A stretch of DNA of 64,000 bases, taken from Pirellulales bacterium (GTDB lineage Bacteria > Planctomycetota > Planctomycetia > Pirellulales > JALHPA01). The notes under the pieces are model-generated. The model did no database searches. It saw only the letters and a program-made list of their open reading frames with translations, and had not been told where the DNA came from. Location of the stretch: NCBI GenBank assembly GCA_040901795.1, contig JBBDYH010000167.1:165314-229313 (forward strand). The letters are read 5' to 3'. Below, piece by piece: positions 49,873 to 57,682 of this stretch (positions are counted from its first letter, which is position 1; each line of letters begins with the position of its first letter). Position numbers and translations under genes: made by a program.

Positions 49873-49900
49873 AACCTGAAACCTTAAACCTTGAACCCTT
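49873..49900. repeat. degenerate heptamer array AACCTGA-AACCTTA-AACCTTG-AACCCTT abutting the stop of the 49901 gene
   Basis: It has 7-nt periodicity, is related to CTGAACC, and lies immediately 3' of the TAA of the minus-strand gene. Confidence 0.6.
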
Positions 49901-50926
49901 TTACGGCACGGCGAAGATCAGCCCCGTGACGGCGCTAGCTTCTAATGCCGCGGCCCGGATGCTCCAGGGGAACGGCTCGATGTAATGCGGCGCGCAGTTG
50001 CCCGGCCGGTAATGCCCCAGTGGATAAATACATTCGCACGGCGGTTCCAGCCCCATCTTGTACGGCAACATCGGAACGGTGGCAAAGAAATGCGCCCCGC
50101 TGATCACCGGATCAAGCACCGGACCCCAAGAGTGTCCATAGCGTTCCATGTGCGCCTGTTCGAAGTAGAGCGGCTTGTGGCATAAGCCCGAGGCCTTCCA
50201 CGTGTAACACGTCTGCCCCCAATCGCGACCACTGTTGAGCGCCAGCCGTTCGTTTCCAAAAGTGCACTCGTACGGTAGGGCGCCGCCCTCACGCGGCGCA
50301 AGATCGAGGATGGCTCGGCTCGTGGTCCGATTCAGCCGGTTGGCCTTCAGATTGCGCAGCGCCGTCTCGCAGTCCGCTTTGGGATCTGGCGCCACACCCA
50401 AGTCCGAGCCTAAGGGGCCAAATGGCGACTGAATTATGTCGTCCCGCGGTGGCGCCGTGGCATCATCAGCCGGCAGCGGAGCCGGTTCATCCGGCTCAGA
50501 CGGTTGGGCTTCGAACGGATTCGGCGGCTGCGCCGAGGTAGCGGCGTTGTCGGTACTAAGCCCAGGCTCTGCCGGTTGCTCGTCCGTCTCGGCCGGTATG
50601 GTCTGCAAACCGCTCGAGCGGAACGGCGAGCGCGGCATCGGGTCGTTGAACGGGTTGGCGAGCGGATCGTCGCTGAGTTGCAAGACGACTCGCTTTACCT
50701 GGGGATCGACGCGCGTTGCTCGAGTGGTACGGGCGGTACGCGGATCGCCCGCGATCGCGGCCGGCTGCGTACGTGATACTTGCTCATCGGCGTGACGGAC
50801 ACTTTGGTGAGGCGGTCGGAAGGGACGCCAACTGAGCAATGTGCCACCGCCGCCTGCCCTCTCCCCAGCCAGCGAGACGCTTGAAGCGGCGACGATCAGG
50901 AATGCAGCCAGCAATACGGACAGCAA
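49901..50926 (-). CDS. hypothetical exported protein with Pro-rich linker and Cys/Trp/His-rich C-terminal domain; start uncertain
   Basis: The track ORF extends to 51199 and overlaps the guaB 3' end and heptamer array, so a TTG at 50926 before the signal-like LLSVLLAAFLIVAASSVSLAG is proposed. The C-terminus has TCYTWKASGLCHKPLYFEQAHMERYGHSWGPV...CECIYPLGHYRPGNCAPHY. Confidence 0.4.
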   Translation of the reverse strand: MLSVLLAAFLIVAASSVSLAGERAGGGGTLLSWRPFRPPHQSVRHADEQVSRTQPAAIAGDPRTARTTRATRVDPQVKRVVLQLSDDPLANPFNDPMPRSPFRSSGLQTIPAETDEQPAEPGLSTDNAATSAQPPNPFEAQPSEPDEPAPLPADDATAPPRDDIIQSPFGPLGSDLGVAPDPKADCETALRNLKANRLNRTTSRAILDLAPREGGALPYECTFGNERLALNSGRDWGQTCYTWKASGLCHKPLYFEQAHMERYGHSWGPVLDPVISGAHFFATVPMLPYKMGLEPPCECIYPLGHYRPGNCAPHYIEPFPWSIRAAALEASAVTGLIFAVP

Positions 50927-51052
50927 GGATTTGGCGCTTGGGAGCGAGGAAATCGGGCGCAGAAATCGGGGGACTGACGTCGCCCCGCTCGCCAACCCCG
51001 GCCTCCCAGCTCTCCGCAGGCGAGTCGCCGTGGCGACCGGGGCTGTTGTTCG

Positions 51053-51080
51053 CTGAACCCTGAACCCTGAACCCTGAACC
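51053..51080. repeat. tandem heptamer (CTGAACC)x4 abutting the guaB stop codon
   Basis: The plus strand reads CTGAACCCTGAACCCTGAACCCTGAACC-CTA. On the coding (minus) strand this is UAG followed by (GGUUCAG)x4, four GGG tracts with 4-nt spacers. Confidence 0.8.
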
Positions 51081-52563
51081 CTAGTTCGACTCCCCGGACT
51101 GGTACTCCGCCGTGTAGTTGGGCGCTTCTTGCGTGATGGCGATGTCATGTGGATGACTCTCCCGGACACTCGCGGCCGAGACTTGGATGAAGCGGGCATC
51201 CTTGCGCAGCTCCTCGATGTTGCGTGTTCCGCAGTAGCCCATTCCCGCTCGCAAACCTCCCACGAGCTGGTAAATGAACGTACTCAGCGGCCCTTTGAAG
51301 GGTACTCGTCCCTCGACCCCCTCGGGTACTAACTTGTCTGGTCCTCGTCCGCTGCCGGCCGACTGGCGATATCGCTCGCTGCTACCGTGGACCATCGCCC
51401 CCAGCGAACCCATCCCTCGATAGACTTTGAACGTGCGGCCTTGAAACAGGATTTGCTGGCCCGGGCTTTCCGCCGTGCCAGCCAACAACCCGCCGATCAT
51501 TACGCCGTACGCCCCGGCGGCGATTGCCTTGGTGACATCTCCCGAATAACGAATCCCTCCGTCGGCGATGATCGGCGTCCCACTTGCGGCGGCAGCCTTG
51601 GCGGCTTGCATAATCGCGGTAATCTGCGGAACGCCAACGCCGGAAATCACTCGCGTCGTGCAAATCGAGCCGGGCCCGATACCGACCTTCACGGCGTCTG
51701 CCCCCGCGGCGATCAGGTCCTTGCAACCTTCTACTGTGGCCACGTTTCCCGCGACCACATCGATGTCCCAGCGCTGCTTGATTTGCCGGACCGTCTCCAG
51801 CACGTTGACCGAATGGCCATGAGCGCTATCGACGACCAGTACGTCAACTCCTTTGGCGATCAGGCTTTCGGCCCGTTCCAGATCGCGAACGCCGACAGCC
51901 GCGCCGACGCGGAGCCGCCCCTGCCTGTCTTTACAGGCTTGCGGGAACCGCTTCATCATGTCGATGTCTTTGATCGTAATCAGGCCGGTCAGTGTGTAAT
52001 TTTCGTCAACCAGTAAAAGTTTCTCGACCTTATTTGCCATCAAAATCTTTTCAGCTTCCTCAAGCGTTACGGTCCCCGTGGCCGTCACGAGCTTCTCACG
52101 CGTCATAATTTCGCTGATCCGCAGATCGTGGTTCTCGAGGAACCGCAGGTCGCGGCGCGTGATGATGCCAGCGAGCTTCTTCCCATTCTCGGTAATGGGA
52201 ACGCCCGAGACGTTGTGCTGCTGCATGACCTCCCGGGCCCGCGCCACCGTGGCCGTAGGCGGAAGCGTGACCGGGTCGAGGATGATGCCGTTGGCCGAGC
52301 GCTTGACCTTTTCGACTTCCTCGGCCTGCCGTTCGACGGACATGTTCTTGTGGATCACGCCCAGGCCGCCTTCCTGAGCCAGTGCGATCGCCATCTCGGC
52401 CTCGGTGACCGTGTCCATCGGCGAGCTAAGCACGGGGATGTTGAGCCGGATGCGCTTGGTGAGCTGCGTCGTCACGCTACAATCGGCCGGGACCACGTCG
52501 CTCCGACGCGGCTCGAGCAGCACGTCGTCGAAGGTAATGCCCTGATAGAGAAGCTTTTCCATG
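51081..52563 (-). CDS. guaB: IMP dehydrogenase
   Basis: N-terminus [22 protein letters not shown] pair and the catalytic loop [24 protein letters not shown] are present. The ATG is at 52563. Confidence 0.9.
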
Positions 52564-52701
52564 GGTATTTCTCGTAGGGTGGGCCGAGCCGCGAGGCCCA
52601 CGCGGTAGAAACGGGGGGAATCCCGTATTATTGGGCTACGCGGCCCACATTGGCAAGGACCACACGACGTAGGTGGTGTCCTAAACAATGTAGTGCCGAG
52701 C

Positions 52702-52893
52702 TCACGGGAGCGGCCGGAAAACATGCCACGCGAGCAGCCCGAACATAGCCGCGTAGACCACAGCAATGACTGCATTCGCTTGTAGTGTGGTCAATCGATA
52801 GTGCCTTACCCCTCGCCACTGTCTGTGGTCGCTCGGCGTCGTCTGCGGCGCTCGGTACGGGTTCTGATCCGGCTTCTCGTCCATGCGGACCAT
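52702..52893 (-). CDS. hypothetical small membrane protein (~63 aa)
   Basis: ATG ORF with C-terminal transmembrane helix [20 protein letters not shown]. Weak. Confidence 0.25.
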
Positions 52894-56480: not shown

Positions 56481-56486
56481 GGAGGA

Positions 56487-56507
56487 GGGTTCAGGGTTCA
56501 GGGTTCA
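56487..56507. repeat. tandem heptamer (GGGTTCA)x3, 6 nt upstream of the serA start codon
   Basis: The plus strand reads CAT-GGAGGA-GGGTTCAGGGTTCAGGGTTCA. The minus-strand mRNA reads (UGAACCC)x3-UCCUCC-AUG. Confidence 0.8.
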
Positions 56508-56566
56508 GAACAGTAGGGTGGGACAAGCCCGCCGCGGGCGACGGCCCACCAATGTCGGCGTTCGCC

Positions 56567-57655
56567 TTATCCATTCCGCTTCCGAAACTCGTCCATAAAG
56601 CTCCGCAAAGTTTTGACTCCTTCCAGCGGCATGGCGTTGTAGATCGAGGCGCGAATGCCGCCGACGGAGCGGTGTCCCTTGAGCTCGTAGAGCTGGTGCT
56701 TTTCCGCCTGCTTTACAAACGCCTTCTCCAGCTCTTCGCTGGGCAGGCGGAAGGTCACATTCATTTGCGAGCGGCAAGCCGGTTGGGCATGGCCGCGATA
56801 GAAACCGCTGTCGACAGCCTCGTAGAGCAGTCGCGCTTTCTCGCGGTTCCGCTCGGCCATTTTTGTCAGGCCACCGACTTCGCTCTGGAGCCACTTGCAA
56901 ATCAAATTAGTGATGTAAATGGCGAACACCGGGGGCGTGTTGTACAGCGAGTCGTTCTTCACCATCGCCTTGAAGTCGAGCATCGTTGGCAGATCCGCCG
57001 GCACCCGTTCCAAGAAGTCGTTGCGAAGTATGCAAACGGTGACTCCTGCGATTCCGGCGTTCTTTTGGGCACAGGCGTAGATCATTCCGTACTGGGCCAC
57101 GTTCACCGGCCGGGAGAGGAATTCCGACGAGGCATCGCAGACCAGCGGCGACGAACCAAACGCGGGGTCGGCCTGAAACTGCACCCCCTGGATTGTTTCG
57201 TTCGAGGTGATATGCACGTAGGCGGCGTCCGGGGTGAGTTTTGGTTCACCCGCGTTCGGCAGTCGCGAATAGTTGTCGGCCTTTCCGTCCCAGGCGACGT
57301 TTGCCGGGCCTTCCTTCTGAGCCTCCTGCACGGCCTTCTGGCCCCAGGTTCCGCTCACGACGTAATCCGCGGGCTTGCCCGTGCCGCGGAGGAAGTTCAT
57401 TGGGATCATCGAGAACTGCAGATTCGACCCGCCTTGCAGAAACACGATGCTATAGCCGGCGGGGATGGCGAGCAGCTCCGTTAGCAGCGCCTTCGTTTCG
57501 GCCAACACGCCTTCGAACCATTTGCTGCGGTGACTGATTTCGAGCGCCGAGATGCCAAGCCCCGGCAGTGCGACAAGCTCGCGCTGCGCCTGCTCGAGCA
57601 CCGGTACGGGAAGTACGGCGGGACCGGGAGAAAAGTTACAAACGCGGTCAGACAT
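56567..57655 (-). CDS. serC: phosphoserine aminotransferase
   Basis: MSDRVCNFSPGPAVLPVPVLEQAQRELVALPGLGISALEISHRS... is the class-V SerC N-terminus. The protein is 362 aa. Confidence 0.9.
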   Translation of the reverse strand: MSDRVCNFSPGPAVLPVPVLEQAQRELVALPGLGISALEISHRSKWFEGVLAETKALLTELLAIPAGYSIVFLQGGSNLQFSMIPMNFLRGTGKPADYVVSGTWGQKAVQEAQKEGPANVAWDGKADNYSRLPNAGEPKLTPDAAYVHITSNETIQGVQFQADPAFGSSPLVCDASSEFLSRPVNVAQYGMIYACAQKNAGIAGVTVCILRNDFLERVPADLPTMLDFKAMVKNDSLYNTPPVFAIYITNLICKWLQSEVGGLTKMAERNREKARLLYEAVDSGFYRGHAQPACRSQMNVTFRLPSEELEKAFVKQAEKHQLYELKGHRSVGGIRASIYNAMPLEGVKTLRSFMDEFRKRNG

Positions 57656-57660
57656 CTGGA

Positions 57661-57682
57661 GGGTTCAGGTTCAGGGTTCAGG
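57661..57682. repeat. tandem heptamer GGGTTCA-GGTTCA-GGGTTCA, 5 nt upstream of the serC start codon
   Basis: The plus strand reads CAT-CTGGA-GGGTTCAGGTTCAGGGTTCAGG. This is the same family as the guaB and serA copies. Confidence 0.8.

Follow-up and report, generated by a model that had tools for sequence, protein, structure and literature searches.

Tandem repeats of 7-nt units were first noticed in bacterial genomes decades ago. The short tandemly repeated repetitive (STRR) elements of cyanobacteria, reportedly described by Mazel and colleagues in 1990, are said to be heptamer repeats of this kind. Among the better characterized examples are the GGGAATC heptamers of Xanthomonas and the GGGGA(C/T)T heptamers of Nostoc PCC 7120, which are intergenic, prefer four units and form quadruplexes as shown by circular dichroism (CD) (Rehm et al., 2015; PMC4692102). 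These repeats lie ‘almost exclusively’ nearer to the open reading frame (ORF) on their 5' side, whatever its orientation, at an average of 28 nt versus 160 nt; they occur as convergent inverted pairs and vary in length between species, and neither a functional association nor a function was found (PMC4692102). TAACTGA direct repeats of marine Beggiatoaceae, some cyanobacteria and Bacteroidetes end a few nucleotides before start codons that lack ribosome-binding sites, and S1, Csp or CsrA have been proposed as their binders (MacGregor, 2015; PMC4679880). In Nostoc 7120, deletion of TTTTGAA repeats upstream of recF and recO changed reporter output (bioRxiv 10.1101/2022.06.06.494920). Here we describe arrays of another heptamer, GGGTTCA (TGAACCC on the opposite strand), in a 64,000-nt stretch of a metagenome-assembled Pirellulales genome (GCA_040901795.1, contig JBBDYH010000167.1, positions 165,314 to 229,313; hereafter, the window), where they abut guaB, serA, serC and a fourth gene. 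A polarity relative to start and stop codons is already published for other heptamers (PMC4692102, PMC4679880). New here are the unit itself in Pirellulales; the recurrence of unit and polarity in Planctomycetota, Acidobacteriota, Lentisphaerota, Verrucomicrobiota, Gemmatimonadota, Chloroflexota and others; the independence of the polarity from quadruplex potential; and the prediction that C-rich arrays yield almost structure-free initiation regions without a Shine-Dalgarno sequence.

The initial annotation of the window reported four arrays of one unit at gene boundaries, and both inspection of the sequence and Tandem Repeats Finder (TRF) bear this out. All four are period-7 arrays of the GGGTTCA/TGAACCC unit, and all are intergenic:

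51053-51082, minus strand: GGGTTCA array on the 3' side of guaB, G-rich on the mRNA; CTGAACC x4.3 by TRF, 100% identical
56481-56508, minus strand: TGAACCC array in the serA leader, (TGAACCC)x3 and one further, degenerate unit, CUCCUCC; C-rich on the mRNA and reaching the AUG
57658-57682, minus strand: TGAACCC array in the serC leader, imperfect x3; C-rich on the mRNA, 5 nt before the AUG
49873-49900, minus strand: degenerate heptamer array after the gene at 49901, AGGGTTC AAGGTTT AAGGTTTC AGGTTCC; G>C on the mRNA, 85-88% matches

The guaB mRNA reads UAG-(GGUUCAG)x4 at its junction, the array beginning within the UAG stop codon itself (51081-51083), flush against the coding region as annotated. 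This is the only canonical quadruplex motif among the window arrays (four G3 tracts with 4-nt loops); on the strand opposite the mRNA, the serA array has three G3 tracts and the serC array two. The serA junction reads (UGAACCC)3-UCCUCC-AUG (ATG at 56478-56480), with a gap of 6 nt between array and ATG and no Shine-Dalgarno sequence; TRF calls AGGGTTC x3.3, 100% identical, at 56486-56508. At serC the mRNA reads UGAACCC-UGAACC-UGAACCC-UCCAG-AUG (ATG at 57653-57655); one unit lacks a C, and TRF calls an imperfect x3.4 array at 57660-57682. An identical serC array is present in an independent assembly (L121), on a 2.3-kb contig that is the sole exact match to the SerC protein. The fourth array starts 1 nt past the TAA (49901-49903) of its gene, UAA-A-AGGGUUC-AAGGUUU-AAGGUUUC-AGGUUCC. 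The spacings of 6 and 5 nt at serA and serC and the degenerate copy behind the 49901 gene are therefore as first described. The identical 7-nt phase claimed for the arrays holds at serA, whose ATG follows four CTGAACC-register units, the last of them degenerate, but is only approximate at serC. The 14-mer (GGGTTCA)2, with up to one mismatch, occurs six times in the window against 0.03 expected from shuffles, and the non-coding tandem repeats detected there by TRF and a periodicity scan have period 7 only; the exception in the periodicity scan, a period-9 run at 13438-13531, is a GGY-coding repeat by TRF. Read from the sequence, (TGAACCC)3 carries TGA in each of the three frames, and because TGAACCC-sense arrays carry these stops, they set an upstream bound for the gene starts behind them, which is of use in annotation. 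The 8 nt directly before the serA AUG (window 56481-56488, minus strand) read CCUCCUCC, and the serC leader ends in CCCUCCAG; the former is, we presume, a match to the anti-Shine-Dalgarno core of 16S rRNA and not a Shine-Dalgarno sequence.

A scan for (GGGTTCA)3 in one genome per GTDB species, a sample that by construction requires at least three perfect units, returned at least 120 loci. By their record titles, the listed loci comprise about 35 from Planctomycetota, about 20 from Acidobacteriota and about 10 from Lentisphaerota, and the remainder include Verrucomicrobiota, Gemmatimonadota, Chloroflexota, Desulfobacterota, Gammaproteobacteria and Firmicutes, for more than 10 phyla in all. One array (L056, JAIWHJ010000190.1) sits on a 4.7-kb contig of very low coverage binned with a Promethearchaeota (Asgard) metagenome-assembled genome (MAG), and may be a mis-binned bacterial sequence rather than an archaeal occurrence. 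Genes were called with a codon log-odds caller trained on the long ORFs of the at least 120 loci, for which start positions are approximate; in the window, the caller found guaB, tpx, the STAS gene and serA correctly and trimmed some starts. For counting, each array was oriented with its G strand left to right, and the placement counts that follow are among the listed loci.

Very often the G-rich strand is immediately preceded on its 5' side by a stop codon or by a start codon read from the reverse strand (CAT), and the flanks commonly hold further heptamer arrays and inverted pairs. Where a start is the 5' neighbour, so that the array is C-rich on the mRNA, 29 of 69 arrays lie within 20 nt of it, compared with 1 of 44 where a start is the 3' neighbour and the array is G-rich on the mRNA. 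For stop codons, 18 of 40 arrays lie within 10 nt when the stop is the 5' neighbour (G-rich on the mRNA), compared with 7 of 61 when it is the 3' neighbour (C-rich on the mRNA). The difference between C- and G-rich-sense placement is significant by Fisher tests both at starts (p=6e-7) and at stops (p=3e-4); with the six occurrences in the window, these results support the original suggestion that codon-adjacent placement exceeds chance, and the tabulation of array-to-codon distances that had been proposed for (GGGTTCA)>=3, run here across at least 120 loci of many species, proves non-random. Among spacers of less than 400 nt, 54 have the array closer to the 5' neighbour and 19 closer to the 3' neighbour (dL<dR; p=5e-5). 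The median distance is about 20-30 nt to the former and 60-180 nt to the latter. The four arrays of the window show the same bias, each being closer to the ORF that lies 5' of its G strand. Only 12 of 134 arrays fall inside called genes. At least 31 junctions of the form (TGAACCC)n, 0-30 nt, start codon and at least 21 of the form stop codon, G-rich array are listed. The start is ATG for 26 of the 29 arrays lying within 20 nt before it, and TAG precedes 10 of 18 G arrays compared with 27% overall (p=0.01), the stop often overlapping a first, degenerate unit. An informal count of the listed junctions shows a slight excess of array-to-ATG distances congruent to 6, 0 or 1 mod 7.

The observation most telling on mechanism comes from spacers between tandem genes. 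Here G-sense arrays avoid the downstream start, lying nearer the upstream stop by 20:2 (p=1e-4), whereas C-sense arrays show no significant bias (22:13). Convergent inverted array pairs occur at seven loci (L001, L029, L035, L058, L068, L076 and L092). Pfam domains agree with the called orientation of the array-adjacent ORFs in 10/10 cases on the stop side and 7/10 on the start side, and extend to the C-terminus or begin near residue 1. The adjacent genes are ordinary housekeeping genes (hemA, ychF, upp and fpg among them), with no link to gene function.

The polarity is not confined to GGGTTCA. Across the listed loci and the window, TRF detects at least 356 period-7 arrays, 148 of the target unit and 208 of about 150 other units, and period 7 is far more frequent than every other period not divisible by three. 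Of the 56 non-target arrays that follow a stop by no more than 20 nt, 48 have G>C on the sense strand (p=5e-8), and of the 17 that precede a start by no more than 20 nt, 13 have C>G. Restricting the stop-adjacent set to units more than two mismatches from GGGTTCA leaves 28 with G>C versus 7 (p=5e-4). In an independent sample drawn without selection for repeats (86 planctomycete loci, 360 kb), 24 period-7 arrays were found, and those abutting a boundary obey the rule in 8/8 cases (p=0.008). Background composition near starts and stops was considered as the source of the polarity and ruled out, the skew in the 30 nt beside boundaries being zero (227 vs 225 upstream of starts, 208 vs 210 downstream of stops). 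Stops in three frames, true of TGAACCC, were tried as a general principle and rejected: a sense-strand stop is present in only 4 of 19 other start-adjacent heptamers. Both array classes can share one spacer. In the smpB-purH spacer of another Pirellulales MAG (L127, 11085-11240), a G-rich array, (AGTGGGC)x8, lies 14 nt past the smpB stop and a C/T-rich one, (CATTCTG)x5.7, lies 2 nt before the purH start, and the window contains a second example built of other units:

29679-29761, minus strand: TGA at 29776-29778, then a G-rich (GAGTGGT)n array, then a C-rich (CCCTCAT)n array

TRF resolves the latter as TGAGGGA x3.9 (29679-29705) and ACCACTC x5 (29727-29761), and the two arrays, an inverted pair, are predicted to fold together as a long hairpin (-39.5 kcal/mol).

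These other units bear directly on the proposal that the arrays are G-quadruplex elements on DNA or RNA, with quadruplex formation as the selected property: a quadruplex would influence transcription, R-loops or the 3' ends of mRNAs when it forms on the template strand before an ORF, or on the non-template strand or the RNA behind a stop. The guaB array, a canonical G3N4 x4 motif, suits this proposal. ViennaRNA predicts for it a three-layer RNA quadruplex at -8.4 kcal/mol, compared with -0.9 when quadruplex energies are left out, and related repeats form quadruplexes by CD and prefer four units (PMC4692102). Four is also the commonest number of G tracts among GGGTTCA arrays (43 of 134), a count confounded by the sample having been ascertained on at least three perfect units. 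The quadruplex potential noted in the initial annotation thus stands for guaB, the one window array with four G tracts, but does not extend to the serA and serC arrays, with their three and two G3 tracts, or to the heptamers that keep the polarity while being unable to form a quadruplex. Only 1 of 36 stop-adjacent arrays unrelated to GGGTTCA has the four G3 tracts required, and the units CTGACCA, TCGTACT and CCATTCC, which replace CTGAACC at orthologous positions (see below), contain no G3 tract on either strand. As a unifying property, quadruplex formation is rejected on these two grounds, and we consider it unlikely to be what is selected.

Predicted folds of the leaders point to the openness of the initiation region. 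Starts led by an array have a mean predicted minimum free energy (MFE) of -2.7 kcal/mol over -40..+20, compared with -14.0 for other starts and -12.1 for GC-matched ones (p ~1e-17), and reverse-complementing the array within the same leaders brings the mean to -15.7 kcal/mol. The arrays themselves lack self-complementarity in fold prediction, and the serA array is left unpaired. Shine-Dalgarno-like 4-mers are present in 4 of 29 array-led leaders compared with 189 of 541 others (p=0.025). Two further points of the initial annotation, the lack of Shine-Dalgarno sequences in these genes and the unstructured C-rich leaders, are supported by the rarity of such 4-mers and by the predicted folds in the larger sample.

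Comparison of the same positions in relatives shows how quickly the arrays change. Relatives were found through SerC and their contigs read; percentages are SerC identity:

Window: serA leader, (CTGAACC)3; serC leader, (CTGAACC)3, imperfect
L122 (89%): serA leader, (CTGCCCC)3(CTGACCA)6; serC leader, (CCATTCC), about 2.5 units
L123 (86%): serA leader, four TCGTACT-like units; serC leader, (CTGAACC)2-CTCAAGC-ATG
L124 (80%): serA leader, (CTGACCC)2; serC leader, no array
L125-L128 (69-84%): serA and serC leaders, no array; G-poor and without Shine-Dalgarno sequences

Within a small clade, occupancy of the leaders and their C-rich polarity are kept, and unit, copy number and quadruplex potential are not. 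At guaB, 78 of the 79 metagenome relatives examined have no array at the stop. In the remaining one (L162, 78% identity, from a Joint Genome Institute (JGI) metagenome), four copies of the window's own unit (AGGGTTC x4) and then AGGGGAC x4 form an array that overlaps the TGA stop of the gene; in the same region (2297-2400) the arrays are followed by a GTAGGGAACGCC element resembling a repetitive extragenic palindrome (REP), the same element as the GTAG REPs of the window. Because units and copy numbers differ and 78/79 guaB relatives lack the array, we regard the arrays as fast-evolving microsatellites and not as conserved signals of these genes; conserved, gene-specific signals were rejected on the absence from the guaB relatives. 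The interpretation first offered for the arrays is supported in part.

Turnover of the unit also weighs on whether a sequence-specific factor binds the arrays in a 7-nt register and so unites the array-bearing genes in a post-transcriptional regulon of the sort proposed for TAACTGA repeats, with ribosomal protein S1, a cold-shock-domain protein, a CsrA-like protein or a DNA-binding regulator as candidates. The position of arrays directly at start codons without Shine-Dalgarno sequences would suit such a factor, and there is precedent both in the published hypothesis (PMC4679880) and in the altered reporter output after deletion of a Nostoc heptamer. Yet the unit differs at orthologous positions, about 150 units are in use across loci, one unit serves in both mRNA orientations, the neighbouring genes are unrelated in function, and the occurrence of GGGTTCA in more than 10 phyla would need a factor shared among them. 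A sequence-specific binding protein was rejected on the change of unit at orthologous positions, and we hold this explanation to be very unlikely. Still more doubtful is an antisense network in which G-rich arrays of the guaB type, on mRNA 3' ends, pair in trans with the serA and serC leaders and so link purine with serine and one-carbon metabolism. Predicted duplexes of the guaB 3' region with the serA and serC leaders reach -53 and -49 kcal/mol and cover the AUG-adjacent region, but such complementarity follows trivially wherever a single unit is used both ways round; 78/79 relatives have no guaB array, the leader units change, and a stable 3' fragment is without evidence.

Simple sequence repeats of variable copy number beside start codons also recall phase-variable (contingency) loci, in which gain or loss of units switches genes. 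Such repeats include the AGAT repeats in the 5' untranslated region (UTR) of Moraxella uspA2 (as cited in PMC4679880) and 5'-UTR repeats of Haemophilus influenzae (PMC12721329). The likeness is that of a repeat lying behind the promoter and ahead of the start codon, through whose length expression can be modulated. Phase-variable repeats, however, have units of 1-4 nt and act as on/off switches of surface and virulence genes, whereas the arrays described here have 7-nt units beside housekeeping genes (guaB, serA, serC, hemA, ychF, upp) of free-living hosts. They lie outside ORFs, so a change in unit number causes no frameshift, and no promoter-like site spans them. We give phase variation almost no credence, and Rehm et al. 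likewise rejected it for their heptamer repeats (PMC4692102).

From their position, polarity and turnover, and from predicted structure or its lack, we infer that the arrays are probably slippage-born, G/C-skewed heptanucleotide microsatellites, filtered by what untranslated regions tolerate or mildly profit from. Zero background skew, the polarity of heptamers that cannot form quadruplexes, rapid turnover, open leaders and the 20:2 avoidance together fit slippage repeats filtered through the mRNA. Replication slippage, which would favour 7-nt units in many bacteria, may create and change the arrays, and these would persist in transcribed untranslated spacers only at positions and in orientations that translation tolerates. 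With its C-rich strand on the mRNA, an array can abut the ATG and would leave an initiation region without a Shine-Dalgarno sequence single-stranded; the region would stay open because a C-rich array cannot pair with itself and offers no Shine-Dalgarno mimic. With its G-rich strand on the mRNA, an array would be kept away from the next start and so be placed directly after the preceding stop. G-rich sequence, whether as structure, quadruplex or Shine-Dalgarno mimic, would not be tolerated near such a start, whereas C-rich sequence would be, and may help. After a stop, the G-rich array could fold as an RNA quadruplex, as predicted at guaB, or pair with a nearby C-rich array. Any benefit would be modest and tunable by copy number, either as an open landing pad for the ribosome or as a structure that borders the coding region on its 3' side, and the role in translation initiation or coupling first put forward for the window arrays may be of this kind.

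Polymerase slippage was the origin proposed in a survey in which heptanucleotides were the most abundant of long simple sequence repeats with units of 5-11 nt (Mrazek et al., 2007, as reported in PMC4679880 and PMC4692102). Period 7 is dominant here as in that survey, in the published summaries of which a polarity to start and stop codons is not described. The arrays could then be products of slippage and nothing more, their position and polarity arising from the mutational mechanism (polar growth, birth at ORF ends) together with deletion in spacers. Rapid turnover of unit and copy number, the emptiness of most orthologous positions, the lack of a link to gene function and the dominance of period 7 across about 150 units are all as expected of neutral repeats. 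Mutation at the level of DNA, however, cannot recognize start and stop codons, and the 20:2 avoidance by G-sense arrays and the roughly fivefold lower predicted structure of the leaders point to selection at the level of mRNA. A purely neutral origin therefore seems improbable to us.

Several observations sit uneasily with slippage followed by tolerance. Anchoring is tighter than a pure filter predicts, many arrays lying 0-8 nt from the ATG; the stops, among which TAG is over-represented, run into the first unit; and the filter does not account for the low number of C-rich arrays lying directly behind a stop (7/61). These three features may leave room for positive selection, which could also be reflected in the retention of a serA-leader array by the close relatives L122, L123 and L124. 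In addition, the starts come from a crude gene caller and are approximate, the locus sample was ascertained on at least three perfect units, and the analysis covered sequence and predicted structure. At the far end of such selection, the polarity rule would be no tolerance filter but a selected, phylum-spanning code for untranslated regions. C-rich heptads would then be landing pads independent of Shine-Dalgarno pairing, read in a 7-nt register by the oligonucleotide-binding (OB) folds of S1 or cold-shock proteins; three-frame stops would aid re-initiation; G-rich heptads would be boundary elements at the 3' end of coding regions; and copy number would tune expression. We judge such a code quite unlikely. 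With slippage and a filter acting through translation as the preferred account, the question becomes a concrete one, namely how genes without Shine-Dalgarno sequences are translated in these phyla and whether repeats can tune the process.

The genes and other elements around the window arrays are as follows:

51081-52562, minus strand: guaB (IMP dehydrogenase), 493 aa; NCBIfam TIGR01302, E=6.9e-188
54852-56480, minus strand: serA (D-3-phosphoglycerate dehydrogenase), 542 aa; TIGR01327, E=5.3e-179, alignment starting at residue 3
56567-57655, minus strand: serC (phosphoserine aminotransferase), 362 aa; NF003764, E=8.5e-143
57714-58865, minus strand: class V (AGXT/BhcA-like) aminotransferase by NCBIfam; match from residue 55 of a long ORF, start as placed by the codon caller
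49901-50995, minus strand: gene downstream of guaB, predicted signal-peptide protein with no family match; start inferred
50996-51042, minus strand: strong predicted hairpin 10 nt past the guaB array, containing the Shine-Dalgarno-like GGGAGG of the next gene
49834-49853, unstranded: GC-rich, terminator-like hairpin CCCCGGCC-TTCC-GGCCGGGG, between convergent genes and just past the degenerate array
56517-56550, minus strand: GTAG-tagged, REP-like hairpin (GGTGGG...CCCACC) that separates the serC stop from the serA array; conserved in L122
57693-57709, minus strand: hairpin GTCGGCG-GTA-CGCCGAC, between the aminotransferase stop and the serC array

The class V aminotransferase (ortholog length 382 aa, stop at 57714-57716) is apparently the first gene of an aminotransferase-serC-serA unit. 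The aminotransferase-serC and serC-serA spacers share, by predicted folds, the order stop, hairpin, unpaired C-rich array, AUG, and a scan found no promoter-like or terminator-like site in either, consistent with a single transcription unit. A terminator scan likewise detected no intrinsic terminator (GC-rich hairpin plus U tract) at the arrays, and an Rfam 15 scan of 49000-59500 gave one sub-threshold chance match, away from them. The 49901 gene likely starts at a TTG at 50995.

The spacers that separate tpx, the STAS gene, a small ORF and serA from one another are filled with REP-like palindromes bearing a GTAG tag (GTAGGGAACGSC...), which are often arranged as inverted dimers (53633-53644, 54142-54153, 54222-54233, 54738-54749 and 54818-54829), and related GTAGGGTGGG hairpins lie at 52568-52601 in the guaB leader and at 56514-56550 in the serC-serA spacer. 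REPs of the GTAG type have been reported for Planctomycetes (PMC3733652). Elsewhere in the window, the 9-nt repeat at 13438-13531 (TGGCGGCTA x8.3) also scores at periods 30 and 48; it is apparently coding and would give a Gly/Tyr-rich repeat. The codon caller assigns 33170-38461 to one 1763-aa plus-strand ORF, where a cruder caller places several small ORFs on both strands.

A literature search found no paper on GGGTTCA or TGAACCC arrays, and exact-sequence searches returned PCR primers only. The unit resembles that of plant telomeres, GGGTTTA; a relationship is unsupported, the arrays being short, internal and in both orientations.

Of the cyanobacterial heptamers, the STRR elements and TTTTGAA repeats share with the window arrays an arrangement of intergenic tandem units near promoters and start codons. 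They differ in unit and phylum, and the Nostoc TTTTGAA repeats overlap promoter and operator sites, whereas the window arrays occupy intercistronic spacers without promoter-like sites. The likeness to the TAACTGA repeats is closer. Those repeats, of 2-6 units, also have one preferred orientation ending a few nucleotides before the start, mostly without a ribosome-binding site, also carry forward-strand stops in all frames, as TGAACCC does, and also have functionally unrelated neighbours. Their unit, however, is AT-rich, with no G/C skew or quadruplex potential, compared with TGAACCC as the mRNA unit here, and the stop-adjacent class in the opposite orientation, minor among TAACTGA repeats (12/170), is prominent for GGGTTCA. 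With the heptamers of Xanthomonas and Nostoc the correspondence is closest: a tandem 7-nt unit with a G3-4 tract and a 3-4 nt loop, mostly intergenic and mostly between co-oriented genes, biased toward the ORF on the 5' side, with inverted pairs, related genomes differing in length and sequence, and no link to gene function. Their placement, too, is within 50 bp upstream of an ORF on the antisense strand or up to 50 bp from a stop on the sense strand. The differences lie in the unit, GGGTTCA; in the hosts, which are Planctomycetota, Acidobacteriota, Lentisphaerota and others and not Xanthomonas or cyanobacteria; in the quadruplex, shown by CD for the earlier repeats and predicted by ViennaRNA for the guaB array of GGGTTCA; and in the non-quadruplex skewed heptamers shown here to have the same polarity, which were outside the scope of the earlier study (PMC4692102). 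Unit sequence aside, membership of the GGGTTCA arrays in the class of heptamers described by Rehm et al. is well supported.

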